A stretch of 63,279 nt of DNA, counting the filler, from Asterionella formosa (Eukaryota): NCBI GenBank assembly GCA_002256025.1. It is 7 parts of 7 records of this genome, joined end to end, with 100 filler letters (N's around TTAATTAATTAA, not from the genome) between each part and the next. Parts side by side here need not be neighbours in the genome. Positions count along the whole stretch, not along the records: positions 27,188 to 36,146 come from NKIB01011405.1; 6 more parts are not named here. One strand, given 5' to 3'. Below, one piece after another: positions 3,965 through 56,436 of the stretch. The notes beneath the pieces were generated by a model that searched no databases, was not told the DNA's origin, and worked only from the letters and a program-made list of their open reading frames with translations. Position 1 is the first letter of the stretch; every line of letters starts with the position of its first letter. A program made the translations under genes and the position numbers.

Positions 3965-4559
3965 NNNNNNNNNNNNNNNNNNNNNNNNNNNNNNNNNNNN
4001 NNNNNNNNNNNNNNNNNNNNNNNNNNNNNNNNNNNNNNNNNNNNNNNNNNNNNNNNNNNNNNNNNNNNNNNNNNNNNNNNNNNNNNNNNNNNNNNNNNNN
4101 NNNNNNNNNNNNNNNNNNNNNNNNNNNNNNNNNNNNNNNNNNNNNNNNNNNNNNNNNNNNNNNNNNNNNNNNNNNNNNNNNNNNNNNNNNNNNNNNNNNN
4201 NNNNNNNNNNNNNNNNNNNNNNNNNNNNNNNNNNNNNNNNNNNNNNNNNNNNNNNNNNNNNNNNNNNNNNNNNNNNNNNNNNNNNNNNNNNNNNNNNNNN
4301 NNNNNNNNNNNNNNNNNNNNNNNNNNNNNNNNNNNNNNNNNNNNNNNNNNNNNNNNNNNNNNNNNNNNNNNNNNNNNNNNNNNNNNNNNNNNNNNNNNNN
4401 NNNNNNNNNNNNNNNNNNNNNNNNNNNNNNNNNNNNNNNNNNNNNNNNNNNNNNNNNNNNNNNNNNNNNNNNNNNNNNNNNNNNNNNNNNNNNNNNNNNN
4501 NNNNNNNNNNNNNNNNNNNNNNNNNNNNNNNNNNNNNNNNNNNNNNNNNNNNNNNNNNN
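3965..4559. other. Within-scaffold assembly gap (N run, no linker)
   Basis: Run of N; the ORFs spanning it are artefacts. Confidence 0.99.
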
Positions 4560-8963: not shown

Positions 8964-9063
8964 NNNNNNNNNNNNNNNNNNNNNNNNNNNNNNNNNNNNN
9001 NNNNNNNTTAATTAATTAANNNNNNNNNNNNNNNNNNNNNNNNNNNNNNNNNNNNNNNNNNNN
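8964..9063. other. Artificial scaffold linker N44-TTAATTAATTAA-N44 (also at 18026-18125, 27088-27187, 36147-36246, 45194-45293, 54239-54338)
   Basis: Identical 100-bp structure six times, with stops in all six frames; flanking genes are cut off at the linkers. Confidence 0.98.
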
Positions 9064-24309: not shown

Positions 24310-27300
24310 ATTTATATTACCTGTTGTAACATCTTGCTGCCTGCTAACATCAAGTCAAGTTCAGTGTATATTCTCTTTTTGTTGGAGAGACAAGCACTTC
24401 TTGCTTTTTTACGCGCTATCAATTCCCAGGTGCCGTATGCAATTTGTAGCAAAAAGTGCGCATTTGTGGTTGCATCACCTGAAAAGTTCTATGAGAAGGC
24501 TTGGAGCCTCATTAAATGAACCAGGAATTATTTCCACCACAATGCCAGCAGCATTCCCCAAAGATCTAATGTTATGTCTAGGTCATGGTTGCTTCGATAC
24601 CAGTATTCAGTGCTTTTTGAATAGTTGACCATTTTTGTGTTTTTTTCGCGATGGTAATTTCAAGAATTGCTGATTTGTTTCCTTCATGTGGACATTCAAC
24701 TGAAATCTTTCATCAACGAAAATGTTATTTCTAGATGAAGTGTCATCTGGCTGGTTTGATCGAACAAGGAATCGACAGGTTAAATTGCAGTCCTTGTTAC
24801 GCCATGTCTATGTATGTTCGCTTAGGCTTATGAGGTTCATATGGCTCATTCGTTTTGAGACTCGGCCATCGCGACACCGCCTACCGAACTCGTTGATGAC
24901 AGGCTTGCGCGTATATGGCATTTTCAAATACAAAAATAACCGGCCGTGTATACAGAATTAATAAATTAGTATATGAAAATGATTCATGTTTGATGTGCGA
25001 CCCAAATGTCGCTGCTGGCCTGCAGTTGACCCATTATCCTGCTACATAGGAATGTTCCGCAGCTCGACCGAATAAGATTAAACGATCGTTTACTTCCCGC
25101 CACGTTGCACGCGTCAAGGAAGCAGGCAGCGCCGAATGTGTTCTATTTTAAGAACTGCTGCGTTTTAAATGTATGTTCCACTTGCTTGCTGCTACGGGTA
25201 TCAGGCTAAGTACCGGTAATTCTCCTGATAATGGTAACCTGGTGCCACCAAAAACCTGGGAGTCACATGAAGGCGTAGCTAATCACACGGTTTTGACCTA
25301 CCGGTAGTTTGGTACAATATTCACTTGCTTCGCTACATAGACCTACTCTTTAAATACCGGTACATAATAAAAGTTCTACTATGCATATCATGTACAATAA
25401 TATCATAGGCCCTTTTATGTACATATACAAAGGCTACCGGTAGCTGACATGTACCACCGGAATACTGATTCTTACTCTAAACGTACACCAGTACATATCT
25501 TAGAGACAATCCGGCACACAAAATAAATGGGTATAATTATGTGGTACTTCACGTGAATTAATGCTTCTCTTTCCGTAAAAAGGTTACTTTTAACGGTTTC
25601 ATCTTCACAAAAAAACTTTGAAATCAAGACTGAATCAGTTGATATTTCAAATAATTCATTTCTAAGTTCAACAAGTCCTGCTCTTGAGGCAAATTCATTT
25701 ATGACATGCATCTTGTTCCTTTGTGAAATAGTAAGGATAGTTGTGGTGTCTTAATTCATGCTACAGTTTATGGCTGTGCACTTCATGTAAATAACATTTA
25801 CTATTATACTGAACAAGATTACTTGTCATGGTTTCATGTGATGGTTCACAATCATATGGTTATTTCAAAGGCAGGACTAGTTGATGATACAACTAATTAT
25901 TTTAAAAGTTCAAGAAACATTTTTTAGAGGATAAATCATTGCAAAAGAAAACTTCACTACTAATTGTTTGATTGCAATCTGCCCTTAATTGATTGAGAAA
26001 AATGGAGCAAAATGGATCTCGAGAAATATCGCGACATGATTCGTGATGCAAGCAACAACCAACCCTAATGAGCACAAAAAAAGGTATGGAACAAATCATT
26101 TAATATTTAATTTGAAATACTTAACTATATACCTTTTCGAATTAGTGTGTGTTATCGACTGAAAATTTTCTGAGTGCTATCGGGCATGAATTGATGGAGA
26201 AAATCGAAGCAATGTGGTTGTCGGCAACTGGGTGCATGAAGCATACTATCAACAATCATCCTTACCATCAATATTGTCAGCATCCAATATGAATTCTCTT
26301 ATTCTTTTACCTAAACTATATTTCTCATGATTTCTAAAGATACAAAATAAATAAATAACATACCTGTAATGTGAATATGTCTGGAATGGCGTCGTGATGC
26401 TGAGTGTGTTGACCTCAGCTAATGAATAGATATGGTACCTGGGACCAGGTACCGGTATAAAAGGCCTATATAGGGCTATAATACATACTACCTGGGCTAC
26501 CAGGTAGCAGGTACCTGCAAAATGCGGTAATTTTGCTGAAACTAAGGATTTAGCTCTCTTTATCACAGATTAAAATGTTAGTTTAAGCAAAATGACCGCA
26601 ACTTGCTACCTGGTACCTTGGGTCTTTTAACGCTGCACTCAGACAGACTAGCAAATAGCTATACTGTATCGTACCACCAGGTACTCCTGGCTGGTAGGAA
26701 CCAGATCGTCATTACAAGTGTGAGACTGTAGGTTTGCCCTACCAGTATTTCCCTCTTCCCCTTCTTGTTACAATAGGAATTATACCATTCGTACTGTGAA
26801 ACTGTACTCATTTCTACTTGCGTACTGTGGAACTGTAGGTTGCTTTGCTCTACCAGTATTCCCGTATTCCCCTTGTTACAATAGAATATGGCGTTAAAAA
26901 AAATCGAATTAAATGGATTGCAATTTAATACTCAAATATTCTACTTCTGTTCACCCATACTTTCCACTGTGCATCCTCTATCAGAATGAGCACACAGTGA
27001 TCTTCAATACCTTAATTTTCACTTCCGGTAACTATGTTTAGATCATTGCCTTTTCAAAATGAAATGAGAGAGTAAACGAAATTGATGNNNNNNNNNNNNN
27101 NNNNNNNNNNNNNNNNNNNNNNNNNNNNNNNTTAATTAATTAANNNNNNNNNNNNNNNNNNNNNNNNNNNNNNNNNNNNNNNNNNNNACAACAAGAACGA
27201 TGCCTTTGTAAAAATTGTTCGTCCATGAACTCACTCTGCGACCGTTGTTCACTGATTGCAGACAATCAATTTGATGAGGGCTGGGTTGGACATTGGGGAA

Positions 27301-28128
27301 CATGGTAAGGAGCACACAGAACCGAAATCATGGCTTCGCAACTTTTGCTATCTCATCAACTCACTCTGCAAATGCTGTTGCCCTCTTGTTTCTACAGCAG
27401 ACAATCAATCTGAGCAATGAGAATGAGCAGCCGGCTCATTTGCTATGAATTGATCTACCGATACTAGCAACAGGACTCCTGCAAGTATGAGTAGCCAGGC
27501 AATCTTGTGAGTCGTTACAGCATCCAGCTGCAAGAATGAACATCCATTGCTTGTCGTATTGGTTTGAGAATCACGTTCTATAGAAAGTATCAATATAAAC
27601 TACTATATAGCTAGCGAAGCGATTAATTTGATTGATTTTGCGATTGTAGAATGAAATTGAAAAAGTGAATTGGTTACACATAATTATTTGTTTGACTAGC
27701 ATATATATTTGTTTAACCTTGAGGTATTAATGTGATCAAAGTAAAGATAAAATGGGAGCAAACTAACAGAATTAATGGTAGTCAGAGTGAAGAATATTTG
27801 TGAACGGAAATGTTGCGAATTGTCGAGAAAAGTACCGTATTATAGAGATTATTACTGAACCAATTTTTCTTCGTGTCGCAAGAAAATATTGTCAGTTGGC
27901 CCCAAAAATTATGTGGGTTTCTAAAATAATTATGGAAGTTGTCGAAACTATTTTAGTTCACTCCGTCCATATATATTGTATGATGCATCATATTTTTTTG
28001 TGATGTCATACCCTTAAATTATGTACGTAGCTAAATTCGTCATATTGGCCCACCCAAATAATTAATTTGGGTGATCATATTTGACTAGCGTTTTTTTGTG
28101 GCGGCTGTACCAGTAATCGGCGTTGTAG

Positions 28129-28530
28129 ATGTACAGTCATGATACCTGTCCAACATGTCAAGACCGGTTGATTGTAGAGTCAGATGTGGAGGGATGTGAG
28201 AGTCACATCTTCTGCGAATGCTGAGATTTTGGATGCCCTGAATGTCAGTGCCGATGGGATGAAGTCGAAGAGTTGGTGGAAAATTTCTTAGAAGATGATA
28301 ACATTCTCAGCAAACTGAAGGATGAAGAGATTACGGCGTCAAGAGCCCGCAACCTTCTATACAAGTTTTTAATCAGAGTTTACTGTGGACCATTGGGAAA
28401 AGTTGTTCTCATGGAACTTCCTGACTGTTGTTTGAAGGGGGTTCGATCCCAATTGAAAAGCAAGGACCGAAACGAAGAGTACACTGGCTTCAAACCTGTT
28501 TCTAAACGTTCAAAATCTAGTAGTGATTAG
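28129..28530 (+). pseudogene. Cys-rich protein resembling the P2X7 cytoplasmic ballast domain; in-frame TGA at 28222-28224
   Basis: MYSHDTCPTC...CESHIFCEC*DFGCPECQCRW...RNLLYKFLIRVYCGPLGKVVLMELPDCCLKGVRSQL...EYTGFK fits the recalled R..Y...G.LG...LP.C....R...YtGF pattern. Confidence 0.6.
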
Positions 28531-28774
28531 TTTATTTTATTATTTTCATTCACTTCAATAGAATATTTTGCATCAATGCACCTAGTACATATCAAAACAG
28601 TACAGGTCACCAGTACAAATCTACAAAGGTACAAGATACAACTATATTATACTGTACAGTAAAGTGTTAGCATTGTCGTACAACCATATCATTGACATCA
28701 AAAACAAACACACCATGACGATCACACCGTCCATTGTTTCTCATTCAATTCTTGTCCAATTGGCAAAGTCTTTA

Positions 28775-28850
28775 ATTGATTCAGTGAACCCAACTCATCT
28801 TCAAATATGACATTGATTCAGTGAACCCAACTCATCTTCAAATATGACAT
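28775..28850. repeat. Perfect short tandem duplication (attgattcagtgaacccaactcatcttcaaatatgac x2)
   Basis: Direct reading. Confidence 0.9.
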
Positions 28851-29158
28851 GAAGATCTTTTTCGTACCGACACCAAGCAATTACATTTTTCAAACCATAA
28901 CATCGATGTACCATCATGCCACAACTGTTGCCATGACATGCCCATGGAATTGCCAAACTCCACCTAAAAGTAACAACAAATATTGCCACTTCACCATGTC
29001 AGTCGGGACGCACCCGCAAATGCGATATATATATATATTTGACATGCATAACATAATAATAATGTATAACATTTTTACATGGCCATCACTCCGGTAAGTA
29101 CAACACAGTGCACTTCTACATATTGATATCAAAAGACAAACAACCGGTACTAACACAT

Positions 29159-29913
29159 TCATTCTCATACCAGTTTCCATCTATAGGATTAGTCATACTG
29201 TGTGCTACAGTTACATGCCCAGCCCTAGAAGGGCTGGATGCTCCATAGGGATGACGCCTATAGGCGTCTTTCCTTTTCCCTCACCCTATAGTATAGGCAT
29301 ACCACTCCATCTGCCGGACTCACATCACGGGTGGCGGGTATATTACATATATTATTATCCAGTACCTGGTACACAGATTACCTGGTACCGGTATACCGAT
29401 TCCGACAAAGGCTTGTCTGTGTATATAATATTTTATATACTACCAGGTACTGGCATCTATGACCGATGCACACAAATGCCTCATACCGGTACATGTGGAT
29501 ACTTATCGATTGAGACACCATACCGGTCACCATCTGCATAGCATACAACGCGCTAGACAAAATATAATCACAATATCCATCAGATGCCATACCGGTACAC
29601 ACATGTGTTAACGTCCATCACGGAGGTCGAAGGGGAGTGGGGGGTGTACAGCAGATACTCCTGTTGCGCAAATCCTATGGAAAAATTAACAATTTACCCA
29701 TAGTAAACCACACCATAGTACCCCTCTCACACTATCAATCATCAAGCGGCCAACCATCACGCTACGCTTACTTGGGACAGCTACCAGGTACCAGGGCTCG
29801 TACGCATACACCGTACCATCACCAAGCATTGAGTCCTTACTACACTCGAACACATTGCTTGTCCGCATTATTACATGGATGAGTTTTCGAGCCTCAAAGG
29901 CACGACTAGAAAT
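29159..29913 (+). mobile_element. Non-coding dispersed element, possibly a non-autonomous Helitron; 5' part recurs at 30359-30486 and 3' part at 55905-56436
   Basis: Copies align by eye; 5' TC start; internal palindromes ccagccctagaagggctgg and gacgcctataggcgtc; 3' hairpin tcgagcctcaaaggcacga followed by CTAG. Confidence 0.55.
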
Positions 29914-30489
29914 TTAGCCTGCCTTTGATACTGGCAAGTACTAAGCTAAAGCTTCGTTTCTCCCATACTCAGATATAGCTTTGTCTACTCTTATTAGGCA
30001 ATTTCTACTAGTCTAGTACAAATTACCGTACTGCTCTATACTTTTGTCCCACGTGCACAAGCGAGACAACCAATTTGAACCAACTGTACTACAGGTGTAC
30101 GAACATACTTCTGTAAGTTGACCAAACGTCTGGAGTCGTGATTGAGCATTGCTGGAGCAATAGCTCAGGTCGGCTTCTTAAGCCGAAGACGCCAGTCGAA
30201 ATTATGCACATCCAGTGCCCACTTTCTTGTCATACACTCGCGAGTTTATGGTTATCAGGTCGCAATGATCCCATTGCAGTCCTGACGTTTCTTTGTGGTT
30301 CCTCAAACTCGTTTCTTTCTTTTCCATCCCACCCTCCCTGCGGTTAACCCTAACCCTATCATTCTCATACCAGTTTCCATCTATAGGATTAGTCATACTG
30401 TGTGCTACAGTTACATGCCAGCCCTAGAAGGGCTGGATGCTCTATAGGGATGACGCCTAGAGGCATTGTCCCTTTTCCCTAACCCTAAC

Positions 30490-30937
30490 ATTGCAATCAG
30501 AATCATCGTGATACCTCCTGCTTCAGCAATCGTCACCTTGTTGTCGTCATTCAAAGCCAAGTACCAAAGTGCTTCACAACCATTCTCTTGCACATTAGCA
30601 TTGGAGGAATGAGTCTTCATTGCAGACAGAATCATAGTGATACCTCCTGCTACAGCAATTGTCACCCTGTTGTAATCATTCAAAGCCAAGTTCCAAAGTG
30701 CTCCAAAACCATAGTATTGCACATTAGCATTTGAGGAATGAGTCTTCATTGCAGACAGAATCGTAGTGATACCTCCTGCTTCAGCAATCGTCACATCATT
30801 GTTGTCATTATTATTAACCAAGTCCATAAGTGCTCCACAACCATTCTTTTGCACATTAGCATTGTAGAAATGAAACTTCATTGCAGACAGAATCGTAATT
30901 ATACCTCCTGCTTCAGCAATCCTCACCTGGTTCTTGT
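30490..30937 (-). pseudogene. Out-of-frame block of ~3.5 ARM repeats just downstream of the kinase, ending at a repeat/telomere-like junction
   Basis: Same repeat units as 32110-33050; begins at acaagaaccaggtgagg overlapping the kinase stop and ends at ccctaaccctaac (30477-30489). Confidence 0.8.
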
Positions 30938-33362
30938 TAGATTAACAAGTTGACCCATTTCTTCAACCAATTCACTAGTTTTTGGCCTCTTCATGCGATA
31001 AGTCTGAATGCAACGAATGGCTAATGAGCACACAGAGGACAAAATTCCATCTTTCCATTCATCTGCAAGAGGATCAACATCCTCCATCAATTTTGGAATT
31101 GCCGACATTGGGGACGATTCAAAATCTTCAATGTAGAGTTCAACAAAATCTCCCTTCTTCCCATATTGGAGGCAGCCTATCACAAGCTCGATCATGACAA
31201 TGCCAAAAGAGAAAACTTCACATGATGCTTCAAATGTCTTATTTCCACGAGAATACCATGGACATATGTAGCCAGGTGTCCCAAAGATTCCATTACATGA
31301 TGTGTTCCGAACTGAAAAAGGAATTCCACTGGTTAAAATGGAGTCATCCACAAGAAAAAATTTGGCTAGGCCACAATCAATCAGCTTGGCAGTGTAGTTC
31401 TGATCAAGGCAGATATTAGATGACTTGATGTCGCGATGAAACAGACCAAGGTTGTCATTTGTACCAGTATGAAGGTAGTGGATGGCACAAATAATGTCGG
31501 ACATGATTCGAACTCGGATCTCACTTGAGAGACTTTCTCTTCTTTGTTCACTCGTATAGAAAGTATCCAGCGAACCATTGGATGCAAACTCATACACCAG
31601 GTATTGAGAAGGTGAACCAGCGGACAAATGATAGCCATATAAAGATACAATATGAGGGTGTCTGAACCTCTTCAATGCCTGAAATAGAATAAGAAAAGAA
31701 TGAGAAACATTAAGCCTTGAAAAGACATCCAATAAATGATACCACACATGAGCTCACCGCCAATTCAATTTTGAAAGTTTTGCTAACTTCCTTCACCTTA
31801 TCTTTTGCAACAGCAATATCGAAAAGAATACGTTTAACAGCAAAGTACTGATTGTCATCCTTCCCTTTGTAGACAGCACCAAAAGCTCCTTCACCTAGTT
31901 TTAAGGCATTATCAAAGTTGTTTGTACAACTAATAATGAATTCCACAGGAAGCTCAATTGGCCTTGAATCCACGTTGTCAATAGCTTCCTTCATTTTCAA
32001 CCGACCTTCAGAAATGCGATCAGTTGAATTGCTACTGCTTGGTGTTGGAGTTGTTAAGGGAGAAAGATCCACTGTCTTGGTGGTTGTTGAAATTGGTTGA
32101 ATCATACGAAGTGCTTCATGACCTTTTTCATAAACACCAACATTGGATAGGTGATTTCGAATAGCAGATTGAATTGCAACTTCTCCACCAGCATTGGTAA
32201 TCATCACCTTGTTGTTGTCATTATTAGTAACCAACTTCATAAGTGCTGTACAACCACAGTATTGCACAAAAGGATTGGAGGAATGGTTATCCATTGCAGA
32301 TAGAATCGTCGTGATACCTCCTGCTTCAGCAATCGTCACCTTGTTGTTGTCATTCAAAGCCAAGTACCAAAGTGCGCCACAACCATTCTCTTGCACATCA
32401 GCATTTGAGGAATGAGACTTCATTGCAGACAGAATCGTAGTGATACCTCCTGCTTCAGCAATCGTCACCCTGCTGTAATCATTCAAAGCCAAGTTCCAAA
32501 GTGCTCCAAAACCATAGTATTGCACATTAGCATTTGAGGAATGAGACTTCATTGCAGACAGAATCGTCGTGATACCTCCTGCTTCAGCAATCGTCACCTT
32601 GTTGTCGTCATTCAAAGCCAAGTACCAAAGTGCTCCACAACCATTCTCTTGCACATTAGCATTCGAGGAATGAGTCTTCATTGCAGACAGAATCGTAGTG
32701 ATACCTCCTGCTTCAGCAATCCTCACCTGGTTCTTGTCATTATTCCAAGCCAAGGTCTGAAGTGCTCCACAACCATAGTATTGCACATTAGCAGTTGAGG
32801 AATGAGACTTCATTGCAGACAGAATCGTAGTGATACCTCCTGCTTCAGAAATCGCCACCTTGTTATTGTCATTATTATTAACCAAGTCCATAAGTGCTGC
32901 ACAACCATAGTGTTGTACATAAGCATTGGAGGAATGCATCTTCATCGCAGACAGAATCGTAGTGATACCTCCTGCTGCAGCAATTGTCACACTGTTGTTG
33001 CCATTATTCGCAGCCAAGTTCGCAAGCTCCATGAGACCTTCTTTTTGAATGTCATCGTTCCGTTCATTCATTTGCATCTTTGAAAGAATTGTAGCTATCG
33101 GAGAAGAAATTGAAGTGGTACAAGCCCCTTGATTATTCCTAAGTTCTTGATCGCATTCAGGGCAGCTCGCTTTTACAGTCTTCCAGCCTCCAAATCTCTT
33201 CTTTTTGCGAAGCTGAATGTCTGAGTGATAACGACAGAATCCCTTCCTAATGAGCTCTGCTTGTACACCATGCTCACTTACAATTGGAGCTTCACGCAGA
33301 TAGTGGGCAGGGGAAAATGTAGGGGCTATTAGTGCAGCTGAAGGTGAGGCGACATTCCCCAT
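30923..33362 (-). CDS. ARM-repeat IRAK/Pelle(RLK)-like protein kinase with a predicted N-myristoylation site; exons 33362-31758 and 31678-30923
   Basis: MGNVAS start; ~7 ARM repeats (IAEAGGITTILSAMKSHSSNANVQ..GC.AL..LA); TNNFDNALKLGEGAFGAVYKG, FAVKRI, HPHIVSLYGY, HRDIKSSN, DCGLAK, GTPGYICP, EVFSFGIV; GCG|gtgagc...cag|GCA intron. The longer track start (33512) is also possible. Confidence 0.9.
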
Positions 33363-33777
33363 GTTGGATTGATTTGAGGATTGTTTTACCGGCTGCCTCC
33401 TCCGAATTTTACATGCTTTGATTTGCCTGATGATTTTTCTTTGTCCTGGTCGTGTTTGAACTACATAATTCTTTAGTTCGTTCACTGCCTCTCGTGGAAT
33501 TCTAGAGTACATCCAAGCTCTATGGCTGGTTGCAACCTGAAGATTAATATAGTAGGATACGTAGGCCTCAGTATAGATTTTCAGTTACACATCGCGAGGT
33601 CTGTTTTCTTCCAAAATAATTTTATTATGTACTTTAATCTACACAGTACGTACAACTAAATAAAATAGTTAAAGGTTATTTTAGTGGGTCACAGCAGTTT
33701 TTTACTGGTACATAAGTCTTGCTTCTACAGGTAGATGACCGAGCGCTCAAGTACCTGAATACGCTAGCGTCTACTAC

Positions 33778-33811
33778 AGTACCAGGTACCAGGTACCAGG
33801 TACCTGGTACC
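33778..33811. repeat. Tandem GGTACC(A/T) 7-mer array, the clearest example of a motif found across the window
   Basis: agtaccaggtaccaggtaccaggtacctggtacc. Confidence 0.9.
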
Positions 33812-34079
33812 CGCACCTTTCACCTTCAGGTATAGCGCACTCTGGTATTGCTTCACCAGTATACCGGTATGTAGCCGGTACAAAAAATTGTAAAGACAGG
33901 TACCGTTGTATTGTTGTTAGATCGGGGTACATGTACATACCGGTATACCTAATACAGCATAGGAGTACATACCAGTGTAATATCAAGGCTCGCTGATTTT
34001 GCTCACTCATTTTCTCCAAATTGCACAAGGAATACTGGCACTACATACTGTCAACCATACTGGTGCTCTATCTTGCCAG

Positions 34080-34445
34080 TCCTTTTTCATTATCTTCACC
34101 ACATCATCCATCATTCCACTGCCAGTTACATTCCCATTGCTTTCCCATCATCACTGCCCCTGCCTCTCAAGTCAACACTGCCTCAAGGACGAGTCTTATT
34201 GCTTTTTACTGATCATTGCTCAAACCACTCAATAATCATCCCTGCTGCTTTCCCATCATTTCCTGCGACTCACTCATCATCATCATCATCACTTGGCCTT
34301 CATCCTTCCTGTTCCATTCCCATAATTGCTCCAATACCCATCATCCCAGCTTCATTTTTGCTGCTTTCCCATCATTTCCGGCGACTCTCTCATCATCACT
34401 TCACCATCATCCTTCCTGTTCCATTCCCATAATTGCTCCAATAGA
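34080..34445. repeat. Low-complexity degenerate repeats (gctttcccatcat / ttccattcccataattgctccaata)
   Basis: Recurring strings; explains the His/Pro/Ser-rich spurious ORFs here. Confidence 0.7.
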
Positions 34446-34805
34446 CAGTCTCATGCTTCTTTGTGAATATCGCCTGCTATGCTGCGTTTCAATTCTAGAT
34501 GTATCAGGTTCTTAGAGAGACGATGTTACGGAGAAGTAGACTGTGCTGTTCTATAATGGATGCTATTTAGCTATGATTGATGTTGTAACACTGATTGATG
34601 CTCCAGTGACAGACCGGCCGGAAATATTCGTCTTGTGTGATGAGCCATTTAATTTTCATTGGATTTCTTCTTTTCAAGCTCTTAACGGATTGCATACATA
34701 CATGCTGTACAATGCAGCCAGATGATGATTGATCGAAGACATATGATGACTTGAACAACAAATGAAGATTTTATCACAAATACTCGCTCCTCTCAACATG
34801 ACTGC

Positions 34806-36146
34806 TTTGTCGTTGTTGTTGCAAGAATCAGAGAGAGGACTGGCAAGGATGATGAGCCAAACCACATTACTTTAACTGGTTCATTATCCTACAAAGAAAT
34901 GTAAATAAAGGAAACTAAAAGATACAATACATATAATAATTAAATTTCCATAGTAGTCAAAAGGGTTAATACTTAAATTACAAGGGCATTTATCAAAATT
35001 ATTAGATGATATAACGAAAAATTATGATCAGATGATCATAACCCTATGATGCATCATAGGAATATGATGTTTTTTTTTGCAGACGTTGATAGTACCTTAT
35101 TCTATACTATGAGCCAATAAATTGAGACGTTAAACATGGTGTGTTGATTGAATATTGATGAAGTTATAGGGGAATCGGTATTGGTAAACTATGATTACCA
35201 AATTGTGTGGTTTTGTTATGAAATGACATAGTGACCTCATCTGGAGGATTTTCCTTGTTGTATGAATGACCTATTGATAGTCCCTTATTCCATACTATGA
35301 GCTAATGAATTGAGACGTTCAACATGCATGGTTTGTTGATTGAATATTGATGAAGTTATAGGGGAATCAGTATTGGGAAACCATGATTACCAAACTGTGT
35401 GGTTTTGTTATGAAATGACATAGTAGTGACCTCATCTGGAGGATCTTCCTTGTTATATGAATGATATATTGATAGTAACTTATTTTATACTGTGTTCCCA
35501 TGAATTGAGACGTTCAACATGGTGGTTGGTTGATTGAATATTGATGAAGTTATAGGTGAATCAGTATTGGGAAACCATCATTACTAAATGGTGTGGCTTT
35601 GTTATGAAATGATATCATATTGACATCATCTGGAAGATGATCCTTGCTTGTTGTATGAATGACATATTGATAGTCCCTTATTCCATACTATGATGAAGTT
35701 ATAGGGGAATCGGTATTGGTAAACTATGATTACCAAATTGTGTGGTTTAGTTATGAAATGATATAGTGACCTCATCTGGAGGACTGTACTTGTCGCAGGA
35801 ATGATGTATTCATATTAGCTACCTTATTCTATACTGTATACCAGTGAACTATGGTGTCCAACAAGATGCATTCATCTGCAAATAAAAACCATCATATTTC
35901 CATGATGCATCATAGGATTGTGATCATCTGATCATAATTTTTCGTTATATCATCTAATAATTGTGATAAATGCCCTCGTAATTAAAATAGTAACCCTTTT
36001 GACTATGGAAATTTATTAATATATGTATTGTTTCTTTTAGGTTCCTTTATTTAAATTTCTTGGTAGGAGAATGTACCAGTGAAAGTAATGTGGTTTGGCT
36101 CATCATCCTCTCCAGTCCTCACTCTGATTCTTGCAACAACGACAAA
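34806..36146. mobile_element. Foldback-like structure: ~275-bp inverted arms (34806-35084 and 35874-36146) around ~4 tandem ~190-bp units
   Basis: tttgtcgttgttg...gcaagaatcagag and gatgatgagccaaaccacattac recur as reverse complements at the scaffold end; tandem units start at ~35086, 35274, 35469 and 35667. Confidence 0.8.
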
Positions 36147-40458: not shown

Positions 40459-43400
40459 CTAGGTGCCCATGCTCAATAGGTTGCGTCTCCCTCGTTCATA
40501 CGAGACAGACTTCATAAATCTCTCCATGAGCTCGATGTATTTGTGAACAGAGAAAGTATAAAATTGGAGAGACCGAAAATGCATTCGGAGAACCATTTCA
40601 CCATTTTTGAAAACGATATCCTCAATCTTCTCGTCTGACAATCTCGTCAATTTTTCGCAAAGAGCCTCCAAGGCGCTTTGGTGGTCTTCAAATTCCTTCT
40701 CATTTGCTGTTAAACTGTATGCTGCCACGTAGGAGTGCTTAAGAAAGCGACGACAGGAAACGAGAGATTCTCTGGTTGATTCAACGATATCCAGGTCGTC
40801 ACCTGATATACACAGAACTCGATCCTCCATAGCTCGTTGCATGTCCTTCTCAAAGGCATTCAAATGATTTACTGCGTAGTGTTCTGCATCTTCGTGACCA
40901 AGATATCGATCGGTGTAGAACAAGTCACGCTTCAACTGGTCATCATCTGTATGCTCGAGTGGATCAAATTGACTACATTGATGAGGAGCAATCTGTGTAC
41001 CTAAGTGAGACAAGCATTGCCAGCAAAACTCATGATAACACTGAGAGCAAGTCATGTGGTCACAGCCGCCATTCTTTTCCATCGGAACACTGCATCCAGG
41101 ACAAGGCTTTATGTTCTTGATAATCCATAATTTGGAATTGCCGAAAAGGCGATTCCAATCCTGAACGTCCCGACAGCGTGCTGGTGTGTGAGGTGAGTCC
41201 CCACATGAAAAGCAAAAACGAGTCGAGCATTTGCTGCAAGTTATAATACCTTCTTCATTAGGCACATGGGCAACAACTTTGCAATCTGGACCCGGGCATG
41301 CGCGGTATTGAGAATCTTTATCAATAAACTCGTCGAGCATTACCTTACGCCAAAATAACTCGTCAGTAGGATGGATGGGAGAAACTCGGTTGGCACATTC
41401 ATGAGATGGGCAAGTGGATTTTAGAAGGTGGATGGCTCCTTCGTCTACCTTGTTAGCAATGTAGGAGTGCCAACAGGGATAGCAGAAGTAGTGACTACAC
41501 CCCAATGAGTACACATCTGTAGATTGTAAATCATTATCAAAGCATATTTCGCAAGTATAGCTTGACAATTCCATTGAATCAGGTTGTTCATTAGACGAAA
41601 TGAGATATGCGACACCATGATCATTCAAGACACCATCGCGGTCCATGCACAGTCCCGAGTGTGCATTTTCGACGGAGAAATCATAGTCCTGAAGCAAGAT
41701 GGTAGCAACACTCTCTGGAACATTTCCTTGGTCGGCAAGGGCTATAATTCGTGAAGTAAGATCTGCGTAAATCTTCTCCAATTCACTCTCCTTTTCAAGG
41801 TCGATCATTTCTGGTATTAATTCTCCCTTGACTGTCATGTCGAATTGTGAAGCATCTATGGATTTGAGAGTGTTTATGGCACTGTTTCTGATATCTTTTC
41901 GAACATCATGTGCTAAGTAGCTCGACAGGTGATAGGAGGCCAGAGGGTCCAACAATAACAACAAGTCAGTGATCCATCTGGTGGCATTCAGACGTGCTGC
42001 TTCAGAGACATTGCACACAGCGTCAAGCAGGAATGGAAACAGGACGGCAACCGCGCTTTCTTTTTCGGTCACAATGGTAGTTACTTTAATTGCATCCGTA
42101 TACACTTTCAAAAGAGCACATAGAGCGTTTGAGACTTTTGCTGCAACGCGCTCGTCTTCTGTGATCGCACATTTGAAAAGAAGAACTGGTAGGTTGAAGG
42201 ACAATCGACCATTCTTGTCATAGACTTCATGGACTTTCGACAGTTTCGAGATTAAATCGTAAGCAGTCTCTCGAGCTTTTCTGGCGTCGTCAATAGCTCG
42301 ACTCATTCTTCGTTGATTATTGCGATGGTGCCTCAGTATCGGAAGGTTAAAATTCTGTGTTCTGTCACTACCATTAGCACTTGGCATAACATCATCATCC
42401 TCTTCTAATAGATTCATTCTAATCCTTCTATGTGGTTCTTCACGATCATTTATACCATCAGTCAAATCCTGGTCTTGTACATGATTTTGTAGTGGCAAGG
42501 GTGAATTCCTTTCCATCATGTTGCCGATGACAGCTATCGATGCCTGTAGACACTTTCGCTCCAGATCGAGCATCCATTCTTGTTCAAATGACTTGTAGAT
42601 TGGTAATTGTTCAAGAATCCGTCGTAAGAGATGTATTGTTGACAGTCCAGATAGGCTGTGTTGATGCTGTACGGCCAAGACAAGATCCACCAGTAATTGC
42701 AGTTCACCTTTTGCCATTTGACTATTATGAGTAGGAGAAAAGTGAAGTTGGAGAAACTTAAGGGTTCGACATGCCATACCTACCGGAAGTGGTCTCCTTT
42801 TCAAACCTTGTGTATTACTACTTGCGTTTGGTGGTTTCGGTCCGAGAATCCCTTCCCAAATTTTTTTCCGCTCTTTGTGACACTCCAAGTGTGCATGAGC
42901 TTTCGAGTCACCCAAAATTAGAATCAAGCATGAAATTACCACAGAGATGCTACAACAACCACTTCTAGCATCCGTTCTATGCCGTTCTCCTCGGTGTTTC
43001 GTTATCGTCGCGCCATTAGCAACATACTCAGCTGCCAGCTGGCGAGATTTACTACTCCGTTGGCCATTGCAGCTGCTGGCCATTGACAAAATAGACAGTA
43101 TCAATATTTGATCCTCGTGGAGCAATCCACAAAGACAATACCGGAAGCATACATATTTCAATTCCCGTAAATAAACCCTCATGGATTCATTCCAAGGAGA
43201 TTTTTTGCGATGAGAAAGTCGTGCGATGCCTTCATCTGAGAGTCCATCCAAGAGTCCATCTGACACTACGATCCACCATGGCGGAGGGGGTATGTCGTCT
43301 ACTGTAAACAAGGTGAGGTCCAAAAGTATTTCGAAGAGTCCAGATCCATTCTCTCTCATGATGTGTCGAAAGTTTGGGGAAACAACAATCTCCTTGTCAA

Positions 43401-44187
43401 GATATTCATTTGCGGTGGAGAAGGTGGAGGAGGACAGTTCAAAGTCACATGTATCAAAATCCAAGAGTGGTGAAAGGGAATATAATATTGCCACAGTGTC
43501 TAAAACTATCCAACTGGCAGTTCTGAACTCATACTGTTCCTCATCACTAATTCTATTGAGTTGCAATTCCTTCGTTTTAATGTCATTCATGAACTTGATC
43601 AAAGTTTCTTGAGTTTCTTGTATTGGCCTCGATGTTTTGTTTTGTTCGTTGGATTTGGCGCAGCAGCAAGATGCCTGAGTACCCACTTGCATCAATTGTA
43701 ATATCATGCCTCTTGTGACTGGACTCTTGGCTTCTTTTAAAAGTGGTCTTATGGTTGAAAGCCAAGAAATGTCTATGGTGGTCGTTGCTGCCATGCTAGG
43801 ATCGAATGCCTTGAATCGGTCAACAAGATGAGATAGACATGCTCCTAGTTGACCTTGCAATTGTTGCTGTTGTAGCAGTAGCTGTTGTTGTTGCCATTGA
43901 TGTTCTGAGAGACTGCTGCTGCTACCAATACCACCGTTGGTAGCAGTAGCTGCTGTTGTATGCCCATCCAGCAACAAGTTCATGATCGCTCTACTTGAAG
44001 CATCTAAACGTGACAGCAATCGAGGTAAAAGATTTGACAAGATTGTTCCTGATGATAATAATTGGATATTAGTTATTTGTGCCAATCGATTGTGGACTCG
44101 AATGACACTGGCAATTTCCTCCTCGACTAGTATCGCTGCTGCTGCTGATCTTAATGATGATGATTTATGTTTTTGGAGAAAATGCAT
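40459..44187 (-). CDS. Ariadne-type RBR E3 ubiquitin ligase (RING1-IBR-RING2-Ariadne) with an ~800-aa N-terminal HEAT-like, Ecm29-like extension
   Basis: RING1 CEICF...CSHYFCYPCW...CPSHEC; IBR CPGPDC...CSKCSTRFCFSC..PHTPARC; RING2 KPCPGC..MEKNGGCDHMTCSQCYHEFCWQC; Ariadne-domain YTDRYLGH and CRRFLKHSYVAAY. Single open frame. Confidence 0.9.
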   Translation of the reverse strand: MHFLQKHKSSSLRSAAAAILVEEEIASVIRVHNRLAQITNIQLLSSGTILSNLLPRLLSRLDASSRAIMNLLLDGHTTAATATNGGIGSSSSLSEHQWQQQQLLLQQQQLQGQLGACLSHLVDRFKAFDPSMAATTTIDISWLSTIRPLLKEAKSPVTRGMILQLMQVGTQASCCCAKSNEQNKTSRPIQETQETLIKFMNDIKTKELQLNRISDEEQYEFRTASWIVLDTVAILYSLSPLLDFDTCDFELSSSTFSTANEYLDKEIVVSPNFRHIMRENGSGLFEILLDLTLFTVDDIPPPPWWIVVSDGLLDGLSDEGIARLSHRKKSPWNESMRVYLRELKYVCFRYCLCGLLHEDQILILSILSMASSCNGQRSSKSRQLAAEYVANGATITKHRGERHRTDARSGCCSISVVISCLILILGDSKAHAHLECHKERKKIWEGILGPKPPNASSNTQGLKRRPLPVGMACRTLKFLQLHFSPTHNSQMAKGELQLLVDLVLAVQHQHSLSGLSTIHLLRRILEQLPIYKSFEQEWMLDLERKCLQASIAVIGNMMERNSPLPLQNHVQDQDLTDGINDREEPHRRIRMNLLEEDDDVMPSANGSDRTQNFNLPILRHHRNNQRRMSRAIDDARKARETAYDLISKLSKVHEVYDKNGRLSFNLPVLLFKCAITEDERVAAKVSNALCALLKVYTDAIKVTTIVTEKESAVAVLFPFLLDAVCNVSEAARLNATRWITDLLLLLDPLASYHLSSYLAHDVRKDIRNSAINTLKSIDASQFDMTVKGELIPEMIDLEKESELEKIYADLTSRIIALADQGNVPESVATILLQDYDFSVENAHSGLCMDRDGVLNDHGVAYLISSNEQPDSMELSSYTCEICFDNDLQSTDVYSLGCSHYFCYPCWHSYIANKVDEGAIHLLKSTCPSHECANRVSPIHPTDELFWRKVMLDEFIDKDSQYRACPGPDCKVVAHVPNEEGIITCSKCSTRFCFSCGDSPHTPARCRDVQDWNRLFGNSKLWIIKNIKPCPGCSVPMEKNGGCDHMTCSQCYHEFCWQCLSHLGTQIAPHQCSQFDPLEHTDDDQLKRDLFYTDRYLGHEDAEHYAVNHLNAFEKDMQRAMEDRVLCISGDDLDIVESTRESLVSCRRFLKHSYVAAYSLTANEKEFEDHQSALEALCEKLTRLSDEKIEDIVFKNGEMVLRMHFRSLQFYTFSVHKYIELMERFMKSVSYERGRRNLLSMGT

Positions 44188-44379
44188 TTTTAAACGATGT
44201 TTTCATAAAATGTGAGCACCTATGTTTTGCTTTGTCAGTTTCCTTGAACGTGAATCGATTTTCTCTCTCTTTGTCATTTAGCAAAAATCAAGCAAATGTA
44301 CATTATACACAGAAAGGGCAGTACAAGAACTAGCGACCTCGCAGCCCTGACCTCGTCATATCTCGACGAGCTTTTCTGG

Positions 44380-44670
44380 GACATTGTCATGATTTGATGC
44401 ATAGAAGCGGTCATGGAGGATTAATTATTATCAAACCCTAACCCAAATCCCCCAGATTTGGGGCTAGGGCTAGTTTCTTGACACCATAGTGATCATGATG
44501 CAATGCACAGACACGGTCGTGGAGGAGGAATTATTGTCGAACCCTAACCCTAAAGGGCTAGTTTCTTGACACCATACCGGTAGTGATCTTCATGTAATGC
44601 CCAGACAGGGTCGTCGAGGAGGAATCATTGTCGCACTAACCCTAATCCCCCAAAATTTAGGGGTTAAGGA
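44380..44670. repeat. ~3 degenerate tandem units each carrying a telomere-like (a)accctaaccc
   Basis: ggagga..aattatt.tc.aaccctaaccc and gggctagtttcttgacaccata recur. Confidence 0.7.
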
Positions 44671-49157: not shown

Positions 49158-49958
49158 NNNNNNNNNNNNNNNNNNNNNNNNNNNNNNNNNNNNNNNNNNN
49201 NNNNNNNNNNNNNNNNNNNNNNNNNNNNNNNNNNNNNNNNNNNNNNNNNNNNNNNNNNNNNNNNNNNNNNNNNNNNNNNNNNNNNNNNNNNNNNNNNNNN
49301 NNNNNNNNNNNNNNNNNNNNNNNNNNNNNNNNNNNNNNNNNNNNNNNNNNNNNNNNNNNNNNNNNNNNNNNNNNNNNNNNNNNNNNNNNNNNNNNNNNNN
49401 NNNNNNNNNNNNNNNNNNNNNNNNNNNNNNNNNNNNNNNNNNNNNNNNNNNNNNNNNNNNNNNNNNNNNNNNNNNNNNNNNNNNNNNNNNNNNNNNNNNN
49501 NNNNNNNNNNNNNNNNNNNNNNNNNNNNNNNNNNNNNNNNNNNNNNNNNNNNNNNNNNNNNNNNNNNNNNNNNNNNNNNNNNNNNNNNNNNNNNNNNNNN
49601 NNNNNNNNNNNNNNNNNNNNNNNNNNNNNNNNNNNNNNNNNNNNNNNNNNNNNNNNNNNNNNNNNNNNNNNNNNNNNNNNNNNNNNNNNNNNNNNNNNNN
49701 NNNNNNNNNNNNNNNNNNNNNNNNNNNNNNNNNNNNNNNNNNNNNNNNNNNNNNNNNNNNNNNNNNNNNNNNNNNNNNNNNNNNNNNNNNNNNNNNNNNN
49801 NNNNNNNNNNNNNNNNNNNNNNNNNNNNNNNNNNNNNNNNNNNNNNNNNNNNNNNNNNNNNNNNNNNNNNNNNNNNNNNNNNNNNNNNNNNNNNNNNNNN
49901 NNNNNNNNNNNNNNNNNNNNNNNNNNNNNNNNNNNNNNNNNNNNNNNNNNNNNNNNNN
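49158..49958. other. Within-scaffold assembly gap (N run)
   Basis: Run of N without linker. Confidence 0.99.
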
Positions 49959-54338: not shown

Positions 54339-55904
54339 TATTGCAGATTCCATCTCTCGCCTCCCGAGGCTTGATTCTTTGGTGGAGGATGATATTGATA
54401 TTGGACCGAAATCTCCAACGTCAACTTCCACTTCTACTTTTTCAATTGAATTAGATGATGAACCTTTGCTTACATGTTTCCTTAATCATCCCATCTTGAC
54501 AGACAATATTCAATATCCTCTGGATTATCATTTAATACATGATAGACCATTGCTGGATATGCAATTGATTCTCAATCAACAAACACATCCATTAAAATTT
54601 CCTTCTATCAATTTTCATGATATAATTTTAATATGTTTTGTGAAGAATCCAGGAGATACTTGGCGTATTGCTATTCCTACATTATTATTGGATCCTATTA
54701 TTAATTGGTATCATCAGATGTTGGCTCGTGTGGGTATGACAAGATTAAATGCTACAATTGCTACACATCTTTATCACCCTACATTAAAAGCAAGAGTGGA
54801 ACATATTGTAAGAGTATTTGAAGCATGTCAACGTACAAAATTACCTGGTACTGGTTTTGGTGAACTTCCACCCAGGAATGCATTATTATTACCATGGTCA
54901 GAAGTCGCAGTAGATCTAATTGGTCCATGGAAGATAACAGTGGCTGCTCAAACGATTGAATTTCGTGCTCTAACTTGTATTGACACTGTCACCAATTTAG
55001 CAGAAATTTCACGTATCACCAATAAAACATCAGAATATATTGCAATGAAATTTGAAAATGATTGGTTAGCCAGATATCCCCGTCCAGAACGTTGTATACA
55101 TGACAATGGAGGTGAATTTACTGGTGCTCCTTTCTTACACATGTTAGTATTGAATGGAATCAAAGATGTGACTACCACAGTAAAGAATCTACAAGCAAAT
55201 GCTATCTGTGAACGTTTGCATCAATCTATCAGCAATAGTCTACGAGTTATGTTTAAGGCTCATCCTCCAATCAATGAATTTCAAGCCCAAAATATTGTGG
55301 ATACATGTTGTGCAGCTGCGTCATATGCAGTTCGAGCTACTATTCATAGTATATTACGTATTTCACCAGGAGCATGGGTTTTTCAACGTGATACTATGAT
55401 ATTAAATATTCCTTTGATTACAGATTTACAATTAATACATCAACGTTGACAAGTGATAATTGACGAATGTTTACGTCATGCTAATTTCCGTCTTCGATCT
55501 TATGATTACAAAGTGGGTGACGAGATTTTAATACTATTGGATAATCCTACTACTTTGGATGATCGTGGACGAGGTCCTTATACCATTATTCAAGTACATG
55601 CCAATGGTACAGTTACTTTTCAACGCACTATGCATATTACCGAACGGATTAATATTGGTCGTATCAAACCTTTTCATAGGTAAAAGGTTTTCCCTCAAGT
55701 GTGGGAGAGTGAGCAATCATGCACATCGATACAGATATATATAGAGTTAGGGTTATGTCAAATATATCGGAATTCAATAATGAGAGAACTCGACTAACAC
55801 CCATTCTATACTTTGATGTCAGTTCAGGAAATGAGTTATACATAAGGATTAATTAATAAGCTCATATATTCAACAAATACTACTACTTCTAGTTAGATAC
55901 TTCA
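54339..55904 (+). mobile_element. 3' end of a Ty3/Gypsy retrotransposon: integrase (stop at 55447) with GPY module, PPT, and 3' LTR 55710-55904
   Basis: PWSEVAVDLIGPW, IHDNGGEF, NAICERLH (D,D,E); GRGPYTI; purine tract gggagag immediately before TG; LTR ends gatacttca and has a homologue at 3108-3363. Confidence 0.9.
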
Positions 55905-56436
55905 CCTGGTACACAGATTACCTTGTACCGGTATACCGATTCCGACTGGGTCTATATATATAATATTTTACATACTACCTGGTACCAGGTACCGGCATCT
56001 ATCACCGATGCACACAAATGCCTCATACATGTGGCTACTTATCGATTGAGACACCATACCGGTCACCATATCCATAGCATACAACGCGCTAGACAAAATA
56101 TAACCACAATATCCATCAGATGCCGTACACACATGTGTTAACGGCCATCACGGAGGACGAAGGGGAGTGGGGGGTGTACAGGAGATACTCCTGTTGCGCA
56201 AATCCTACGGAAAAATTAATAATTTACCCATAGTAAAGCACACCATAGTACCCCTCTCACACAAACAATCATCAAGCGGCCAACCATCACGCTACGCTTA
56301 CTTGGGACAGCTACCAGTGCTTGAACGCATACACCGTACCATCGCCCAGCATTGAGTCCTCACTACACTCGAACACATTTCTTGTCCGCATTATTACATG
56401 GACGATTTTTCGAGCCTCAAAGGCGCGACTAGAAAT
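55905..56436 (+). repeat. Second copy of the 3' portion of the 29159-29913 element
   Basis: cctggtacacagattacc...gatactcctgttgcgcaaatcc...tcgagcctcaaaggc.cgactagaaat is colinear with 29365-29913. Confidence 0.9.

Follow-up and report, generated by a model that had tools for sequence, protein, structure and literature searches.

An apparently transcribed ARM-array kinase gene of the diatom Asterionella formosa, probably a truncated member of a module-shuffled family

The stramenopile TKL kinases that carry repeat domains are among the closest described systems to the subject of this report, an armadillo (ARM)-repeat kinase gene of the diatom Asterionella formosa (assembly GCA_002256025.1) that lies on the minus strand at positions 30923..33362 of a stretch of 63,279 nucleotides (the window). 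In Phytophthora infestans, the Oomycete Subfamily 1 (OS1) comprises TKLs with 15 N-terminal ANK repeats, with 10 C-terminal ARM repeats or with PDZ/TPR domains, according to an excerpt of PMC3019232; the same excerpt states that T. pseudonana, a diatom, yielded no IRAK-like kinase. The family of the window gene may possibly be the one described as OS1 in Phytophthora. The window gene is like the stramenopile repeat-domain TKLs in its kinase core (HRDIKSAN, DCG, GTxGYxCPx) and in having the repeat array N-terminal of the kinase. It differs from the ANK forms, to which it is about 40% identical, in that its sensor consists of near-identical ARM units and not of ANK repeats, and from Fragilaria P0125 and its own closer relatives P0122 and P0129 in that it lacks the RING-like finger and the CPxLVW..FxCxHS domain that these proteins carry after the kinase.

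Brown-algal LRR-ROCO and NB-ARC-TPR genes and fungal NLRs likewise show near-identical units, variation at predicted binding sites and unit shuffling (excerpts of PMC3341825, PMC11378527 and PMC13449251). Unlike these, the window gene has ARM repeats and not LRR, TPR, ANK or WD40, a kinase and not a NOD or Roc-COR module, and an array contained in a single exon. Vac8 has no kinase and its repeats are all different, whereas the units of the window are near-identical and keep the helix-3 Asn in one of six. Vac8 is N-terminally acylated; the window gene has a possible MG start, which is not conserved in its paralogues. LRRK2 and other ROCO proteins share with the window gene the presence of ARM repeats and a TKL-group kinase in one protein, and the Pfam family ARM_LRRK2 scores 69.6 bits in the window; however, the ANK, LRR, Roc, COR and WD40 parts are missing here, and LRRK2 is not among the 60 kinase matches listed. 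The IRAK/Pelle and RLK/RLCK kinases are similar in the pre-kinase motif (..NF....LG.G.FG.VYKG) and in the style of HRDIKSSN, but the window gene lacks the death domain, transmembrane segment and ectodomain and has DCG for DFG and CPW for APE. Our literature search found no description of ARM-array kinases in diatoms. The expansions named in an excerpt of a preprint on diatom gene families (10.1101/2025.10.24.684338) are limited to ankyrin and tyrosine-kinase genes of a single Phaeodactylum strain.

The locus probably belongs to a diatom family of cytosolic repeat-domain kinases that is multi-copy and has shuffled modules; within it, this gene would be a C-terminally truncated member that is apparently transcribed. 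All features listed by an earlier sequence-only reading of this DNA were recovered in place on the minus strand. The gene and its 3' flank comprise the following features:

30923..33362, minus strand: whole ARM-kinase gene, two exons, 786 aa
33362..31758, minus strand: exon 1
31757..31679, minus strand: intron of 79 nt, GT..AG, phase 0, splitting the kinase
31678..30923, minus strand: exon 2, including the TGA stop at 30925-30923
33345..33362, minus strand: proposed start MGNVAS, with the ATG at 33362
33108..33305, minus strand: N-terminal cassette, residues 20-85, with C43-x2-H46 and C67-x2-C70
32976..33107, minus strand: divergent N-cap ARM repeat, residues 86-129
32193..32975, minus strand: six near-identical ARM units u1-u6 of 44, 44, 43, 43, 43 and 44 aa
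32067..32192, minus strand: divergent C-cap ARM repeat, residues 391-432
31758..31931, minus strand: kinase N-lobe, with TNNF.., GEGAFGAV at residue 490, Lys 507 in FAVKR and the Glu in KIELA
30926..31678, minus strand: kinase C-lobe, with HRD at 31438-31430, DCG at 31378-31370 and GTPGYICPWY replacing ..APE
30928..30937, minus strand: rearrangement junction from family kinase tail to ARM-array DNA, 10-nt overlap (from alignment to L001 and the u2/u3 boundary)
30489..30941, minus strand: partial second ARM array of 3.4 units (u2-type end, f1, f2, f3 and a shortened f4), out of frame
30346..30488, strand unassigned: 140-bp element bounded by CCCTAA repeats, adjoining the broken ARM unit

The protein thus runs from the CxxH..CxxC cassette through eight ARM repeats to a complete kinase of the TKL type (HRD, DCG). 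Pfam matched exon 1 to Arm (PF00514; 63.9 bits against a cut-off of 20.6) as well as to ARM_LRRK2 (69.6 bits), and exon 2 to Pkinase (E 4e-27). NOD (NB-ARC/NACHT), Roc-COR, death and TIR modules are absent from the Pfam matches of both exons. The 786-aa sequence shows no long hydrophobic stretch, transmembrane segment or ectodomain, and the protein looks cytosolic. The splice junction ELA|ALKRF is uninterrupted in the paralogue P0030, and the genomic copies read through the intron. The MGxxxS start named by the sequence-only reading is present, as the ATG at 33362 reads MGNVAS. A further in-frame ATG lies upstream at 33512 without an intervening stop, so that the MG start is uncertain and one of two candidates. 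The PROSITE myristoylation pattern excludes Pro at the position after Ser. The membrane anchoring that had been proposed from this start is not supported: the MG start is not common to P0001 and P0007, a second ATG lies upstream, and Pro follows the Ser. A minimal upstream open reading frame (ORF; ATG then TAA) is found at 33413-33415, 50 nt upstream of the MGNVAS start and within the stretch covered by an RNA-library contig.

The eight ARM repeats are made up of the N-cap, the six near-identical units and the C-cap. TRF described the main array as 6.3 copies of period 129 with 84% matches. The ARM repeats of the sequence-only reading are therefore present, but the unit length it gave (41-42 aa, 123/126 bp) was wrong, the units having 43-44 aa (129/132 bp). 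It was right that one part of the unit is almost identical at the DNA level: its 33-nt scaffold motif occurs 10 times in the window at no more than 3 mismatches (6 exact) and in none of 100 shuffles, and it is exact in five of the six units, u1 having one mismatch. The five variable types are also there (HYGCAALMDLV, YYGCGALQTLA, ENGCGALWYLA, found twice, YYGFGALWNLA and YCGCTALMKLV). The entire array is in a single exon; the units do not correspond to individual exons.

An AlphaFold2 model of residues 1-432 (27 aligned sequences) has a pLDDT of 86.3 overall and of more than 94 over residues 86-425, where 24 helices in eight repeats give a continuous solenoid. The best Foldseek matches are engineered or designed ARM proteins (TM 0.67-0.81) and Vac8. 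By sequence, the best solved match of the ARM part is Vac8 (E 4.6e-39), and the ARM region of LRRK2 is matched at 8e-13. Helix 3 of the model corresponds to unit columns 18-31. Placed on a helical wheel at 100 degrees per residue, the columns that vary (19, 22, 23, 26, 29, 30 and 33) fall within one 120-degree arc, with the conserved columns 20, 21, 24, 25, 27, 28, 31 and 32 on the opposite arc; in the model, the variation between units therefore forms a single exposed stripe on helix 3. The confinement of variation to one half of the unit had been anticipated by the sequence-only reading, and it proved to be concentrated on this helix and on a single face. Helix 3 lines the ligand groove in ARM proteins, and in importin-alpha-type proteins a ladder of Asn on this helix holds the peptide backbone. 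The position aligned to the N of LGNLA in Vac8 reads D, T, Y, N, Y and K in u1-u6. The Asn ladder marks one binding mode and is not defining for the ARM fold.

For selection on the units, we used pooled Nei-Gojobori estimates (NG86) of omega (dN/dS), either for u1-u6 or for 14 units, namely u1-u6 together with three from the 3' fragment and five from the metagenome copy L004:

Codons 1-18, scaffold: omega 0.53 (14 units), 0.40 (u1-u6)
Codons 19-33, helix 3: omega 4.25 (14 units), 3.55 (u1-u6)
Codons 34-44, loop and next helix 1: omega 0.77 (14 units), 0.94 (u1-u6)

The proportion of synonymous differences (pS) on helix 3 (0.06-0.09) is not above that of the scaffold (0.15-0.16), which argues against old differences having escaped homogenisation. 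Minimum event counts on helix 3 are 25 non-synonymous and 2 synonymous variants. With u1-u6 alone, Fisher's test gives p 0.027 against codons 1-18 and 0.14 against all other codons. These results are suggestive of positive selection on helix 3. The sequence-only reading had pointed to dN/dS at helix-3 positions, and there the pooled omega (3.55-4.25) agrees with diversification but the event counts stay at p about 0.06-0.07.

Scanning metagenome contigs with the kinase exon gave five loci from 74 pattern matches (L003 being the locus at 42% identity). L004 is a contig of 2288 bp that aligns colinearly with 33643..31384. It and the window differ at 13 of 1196 positions outside the array (1.1%) and at 56 of 783 within u1-u6 (7.2%), the latter mostly from 32891 to 32588, with u6 identical. 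The third unit of L004 (a3) is of the MDLV type, with 12 differences to f1, 14 to u1 and 26 to u3 of the window, and the window u3 is nearest to f3 (3 differences), then to u5 (5). These unit-by-unit distances show that one array position holds different unit types in two copies that are otherwise 99% identical. The order of unit types in the partial second array is that of a3-a4-a5 in L004. Both pS (0.049) and its non-synonymous counterpart pN (0.069) are raised within the array, as expected from patch replacement. Between the C-cap and the exon 1 border, one non-synonymous and three synonymous differences (pN 0.003, pS 0.030) point to purifying selection. Internal units number six in the window and in L004, four in P0001 and one in L005. 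Variation in repeat number and order, as proposed in the sequence-only reading, is thus seen in these counts and in the type at position 3, but metagenome misjoins could account for some of it.

The family appears to be multi-copy. In one DNA run, 57,549 contig records fall on the 3.4-kb stretch at a likeness of at least 90%, mostly over the ARM units; this depth is a hint of many copies and not a copy number. The combination of ARM repeats and kinase was seen only in the window, L004, L005 and P0001, and no ARM-plus-kinase protein is among the 120 matches listed for the kinase. A single X1 DNA contig (depth 927, with a 29-nt side and 6 other letters between) joins 30337 to 33523, leaving out both the gene and its 3' fragment. 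The contig might represent an empty-site allele or a different member with similar flanks; we dropped the call of an empty-site allele, the 29-nt side being too thin.

These copies also bear on whether the gene is an ordinary scaffold kinase, in which ARM repeats would be a fixed docking platform of the Vac8 or beta-catenin kind, with recent duplication and concerted evolution, and with differences between units that are old, fixed and functional. We find this quite unlikely. Vac8 is the best solved sequence match, and discrete unit types recur almost unchanged across copies (u4/a4/f2, u5/a5, u3/f3 and u6 = a6), which fits conserved types; oomycete TKL kinases with ANK, ARM or TPR domains are also known (excerpt of PMC3019232). 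However, synonymous divergence on helix 3 is not above that of the scaffold, the unit number (6, 6, 4, 1) and the type per position differ among close copies, and the family is multi-copy with many variants.

In the kinase, we found TNNF..LGEGAFGAVYKG, HRDIKSSN and DCGLA, which bears out the sequence-only description of an RD kinase with RLK/Pelle-type motifs and DCG in place of DFG. The kinase retains the ATP-binding Lys, the alpha-C Glu, HRD, the Asn and the Mg-binding Asp. DCG is present in 14 of the 16 tabulated proteins, including those of Fragilaria, Epithemia, Amphora, Pelagomonas and Aphanomyces (the exceptions are two plant kinases), and CPx for APE likewise recurs in the relatives from these five genera. 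H-R-D and D-C-G are invariant across a family alignment of 24 sequences. DCG and CPx are marks of the whole family and not accidents of the window copy. We rejected an immune-type "non-RD" kinase, for which HHD in L004, L001 and L002 and HGD in P0035 might speak, given the invariant H-R-D of the 24-sequence alignment; the in-frame stop of L001 and the frameshift of L004 also disfavour it. Decay, possibly at CpG, is the simpler reading of the HHD variants.

Against solved structures, 58 of the 60 matches listed for the full kinase of P0030 are IRAK1/3/4 or plant RLK/RLCK, and the other two are CTR1. The best are a lectin RLK (8.7e-29) and IRAK1 (4.7e-26), followed by IRAK4, CERK1, PBL2, Pto, FERONIA, BRI1 and BAK1. 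In a structural search with the C-lobe of the paralogue P0122, the top 12 of the 50 matches listed belong to the IRAK/RLK family, led by IRAK1 (Z 15.3). The sequence-only label "IRAK/Pelle-like" is supported by these nearest solved kinases, but not by domain content, as neither a death domain nor a transmembrane segment was found. Cytoplasmic RLCKs also lack the death domain and ectodomain, and this absence alone does not exclude membership. We take the label as fair for a likeness, and membership of the family as possible. The closest named proteins, at about 40% identity, are ANK-repeat kinases of the diatom Fragilaria crotonensis (more than 25 listed). Further named relatives are Kelch, LRR, FHA, UIM and U-box forms and an Aphanomyces "TKL protein kinase". 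The sensors found on the kinase core are ANK (Fragilaria, Amphora, Pelagomonas, Aphanomyces), Kelch (Epithemia) and LRR (P0216).

Such affinities raise the possibility of an immune or non-self sensor at the level of the family, in which germline-diversified ARM surfaces would recognise proteins of pathogens or foreign cells and let the kinase, together with the RING finger and post-kinase domain in full-length members, trigger defence or incompatibility, much as repeat arrays do for NLRs and plant RLKs. The near-identical repeats, the variable helix-3 sites, unit swapping and the variation in unit number are in favour of it, as is the swapping of ANK, Kelch and LRR sensors on the kinase core in other stramenopiles. 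Among the nearest solved matches of the family kinases P0030 and P0122 are the immune kinases IRAK1/4, CERK1, PBL2, Pto and BIK1. In other protists, the ARM type is fused to TIR (P0031), ADP-ribosyltransferase (P0002, P0003) and DUF4062 (P0010), and the exon-shuffled LRR/TPR candidate receptors of brown algae offer analogues (excerpts of PMC3341825 and PMC11378527). Yet fusions of this ARM type to SH3, BTB, TAZ, PH, U-box and RING are found as well, as a general binding module would show, so that its partners are a mix of immune-type and general domains. The selection signal is borderline, Pfam found no NOD, death or TIR module in the window gene, and the window copy is truncated. On balance, a sensor of this kind seems unlikely to us.

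The truncation is seen at the 3' end of the gene. P0122, P0129 and Fragilaria P0125 continue past the kinase with a RING-like Cys/His finger, a helix of about 50 residues and a CPxLVW..FxCxHS domain of about 200 aa (residues ~215-514 in P0122), whereas the window protein stops 6 residues after GQLV. DNA past the junction is identical to the u2/u3 boundary of the main array, and the stop codon lies in this ARM-derived, out-of-frame part. By these alignments, the window gene appears to be a truncated derivative of a stramenopile family with DCG-kinase, RING-like finger and post-kinase region. No Pfam family matched the post-kinase region of P0122, P0129 or P0125, and the Atlas gave no usable match; in a wide VIA-align search with the P0122 model (pLDDT 73), the matches listed cover the kinase lobe only (residues 1-201 at most). 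We rejected an alternative splice donor at the stop (CAG|GTGAGG), as the same words occur within the coding array at the u2/u3 boundary and give no evidence of splicing.

Behind the junction, the partial second array breaks off mid-unit directly at CCCTAACCCTAAC. A second, degenerate copy of the adjoining 140-bp element is found at 29150-29288, 1.2 kb away. Words like CCCTAACCCTAA number five in the window, with 0.16 expected by chance. The paralogue P0030, available as protein only, has a C-terminus (..GLGLGL) as TTAGGG repeats would give when read in one frame. These telomere-like repeats may reflect a subtelomeric setting or healed breaks. Telomere-type repeats are also listed at 44436-44645.

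The same 3' flank would fit a decaying chimeric pseudogene, the by-product of rearrangement in a repeat-rich, possibly subtelomeric region, transcribed and functionless, whose array variation would come from relaxed constraint and junk recombination. Its C-terminal modules were lost at the 10-nt-overlap junction with the out-of-frame ARM fragment and telomere-like repeats behind, no other clear gene accompanies it on its piece of about 9 kb, which has dispersed and inverted repeats, and sister copies carry stops or frameshifts. We nevertheless regard a pseudogene as doubtful, because the frame of 786 codons is open with all catalytic residues and both ARM caps intact, pN is far below pS between the C-cap and the end of exon 1 (0.003 versus 0.030 against L004), the scaffold codons of the units have omega 0.4-0.5, and RNA-library contigs from two studies match exactly.

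The sequencing runs that contain the stretch come from freshwater, lake or algal samples. Two poly-A RNA libraries, each from a different study (X4, lake water; X10, an algal sample), contain contigs that match unique parts of the gene without a difference. Record 11 of X10 (300 nt) aligns over 209 nt only, at 31469-31677, and record 29 of X4 (232 nt) aligns at 31757-31893, only from its position 96. Both of these RNA contigs end at exon borders, which the DNA contigs X1 record 5 and X2 record 21 cross; the intron joint itself is not among the joint matches listed. Record 32 of X4 reaches 33427, 65 nt upstream of the ATG at 33362. Run X10 has no cover over 33264-33491, and contigs break at 30908, the start of the repeats. 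Near-identical paralogues could be the source of some of the RNA contigs. Taken as sequence matches, these contigs indicate that the ARM-kinase gene is apparently transcribed.

If the locus is a truncated member of a module-shuffled kinase family, as we favour, the exposed helix-3 stripe could serve as a ligand groove to which each unit type would add its own contacts with a bound peptide or protein. Ligand binding would then position or activate the kinase. Unequal recombination or gene conversion among the arrays of the family could re-assort unit types and so change specificity. Full-length relatives may signal onward through the RING-like finger, the coiled coil and the domain of about 200 aa. 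The window copy would have lost these C-terminal modules when a rearrangement fused its tail to an isolated ARM fragment next to telomere-like repeats. What it could still do would then be limited to binding and phosphorylation, or to serving as a decoy or as a source of repeat units.

Several observations weigh against this reading. The window copy has no RING-like finger, coiled coil or CPxLVW..FxCxHS domain and might have no function even though RNA contigs match it. CPW stands where APE would be, without the glutamate, and kinase activity is therefore inferred. Only one of the six units keeps the canonical helix-3 Asn, so that importin-like peptide binding is not assured. On helix 3, the event counts are not significant at 0.05 (one-sided binomial p 0.064; Fisher p 0.06-0.07, with 0.067 versus the rest), and the dN/dS contrast rests on 14 short, non-independent units. 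L004, L005 and P0001 were taken from metagenome assemblies, in which repeats this similar may be misjoined; likewise, only unitig-like contigs that break within the repeats were aligned, and the unit order of the window rests on its assembly. Decayed copies are also present: L004 has a deletion of 1 nt at 33317, after the ATG, and HHD for HRD, and L001 and L005 have in-frame stops.

More broadly, some diatoms might hold a germline repertoire of cytosolic receptor kinases with one signalling core (DCG kinase, RING-like finger, coiled coil and the domain of about 200 aa), exchangeable ARM, ANK, Kelch or LRR sensors and recombined ARM units of a few types that vary solely on the helix-3 face, in which truncated copies and array fragments within repeat-rich, telomere-like DNA would act as donors for a modular non-self code; we hold this to be quite unlikely. 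If true, it would be a diatom counterpart, based on kinases, of NLR and variable-repeat immune receptors. We know of no intracellular immune receptors in diatoms, and to our knowledge the intracellular recognition of viruses, chytrids, oomycetes, bacteria and mating partners is largely unknown in this group. An IRAK/RLK-like kinase with swappable sensors that vary on a predicted binding face provides concrete candidates for such recognition. Modular peptide binding by the unit types, if real, would make them of interest to protein engineers, their nearest folds being designed armadillo binders. Should the variation prove to be an assembly artefact or decay, the locus would still be a clear example of how modules are shuffled and genes truncated in the repeat-rich DNA of a diatom.

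The N-terminal cassette (residues 20-85) is common to the window gene, P0001, P0007, L004 and L005. No Pfam family matched it, and the AlphaFold2 model has low confidence here (pLDDT <60). Among the 1.84 billion representatives searched, 163 proteins carry the cassette at E <= 1e-3 and 38 at E <= 1e-10. Many of them carry 2-4 copies of its core, often in tandem, with a maximum of 17 in one protein, and 36 of the 40 scanned are without any Pfam family. The cassette is an undescribed module of wide occurrence with a likeness to a small zinc ribbon. P0240-P0387 are among the cassette proteins found.

Pieces of about 9 kb, concatenated through linkers of the form N44-TTAATTAATTAA-N44, make up the window, and neighbours across a linker are not linked. 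Longer N gaps are present at 3965-4559 and 49158-49958. The linkers are placed as follows:

8964-9063: linker TTAATTAATTAA
18026-18125: linker TTAATTAATTAA
27088-27187: linker TTAATTAATTAA
36147-36246: linker TTAATTAATTAA
45194-45293: linker TTAATTAATTAA
54239-54338: linker TTAATTAATTAA

The piece of the ARM-kinase gene is 27188-36146, and no second clear gene was found on it, but several dispersed and inverted repeats instead. A dispersed repeat of about 550 bp, 89.6% identical between its copies, lies at 29364-29913 in the 3' flank of the gene and at 55904-56436 on another piece. Upstream of the gene, inverted repeats of about 260 bp (34812-35078 and 35881-36143, 90-91% complementary) surround tandem repeats whose period is close to 190 bp (35041-35807), and they look like a non-autonomous terminal inverted repeat (TIR) element. 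Other pieces of the window carry aconitase B, MetRS, an IBR E3 ligase, a DEAD helicase, an MFS transporter and EF1G. We dropped these housekeeping genes as genomic context, all of them being on other pieces of the concatenate. For MetRS, the best matches that bear a name are all from diatoms, at 62-72% identity, which indicates a diatom without a close named relative. The IBR domains are found in an ORF of 1247 aa (RBR-type E3 ligase) at 40459-44202 on the minus strand, on another piece than the ARM-kinase gene.

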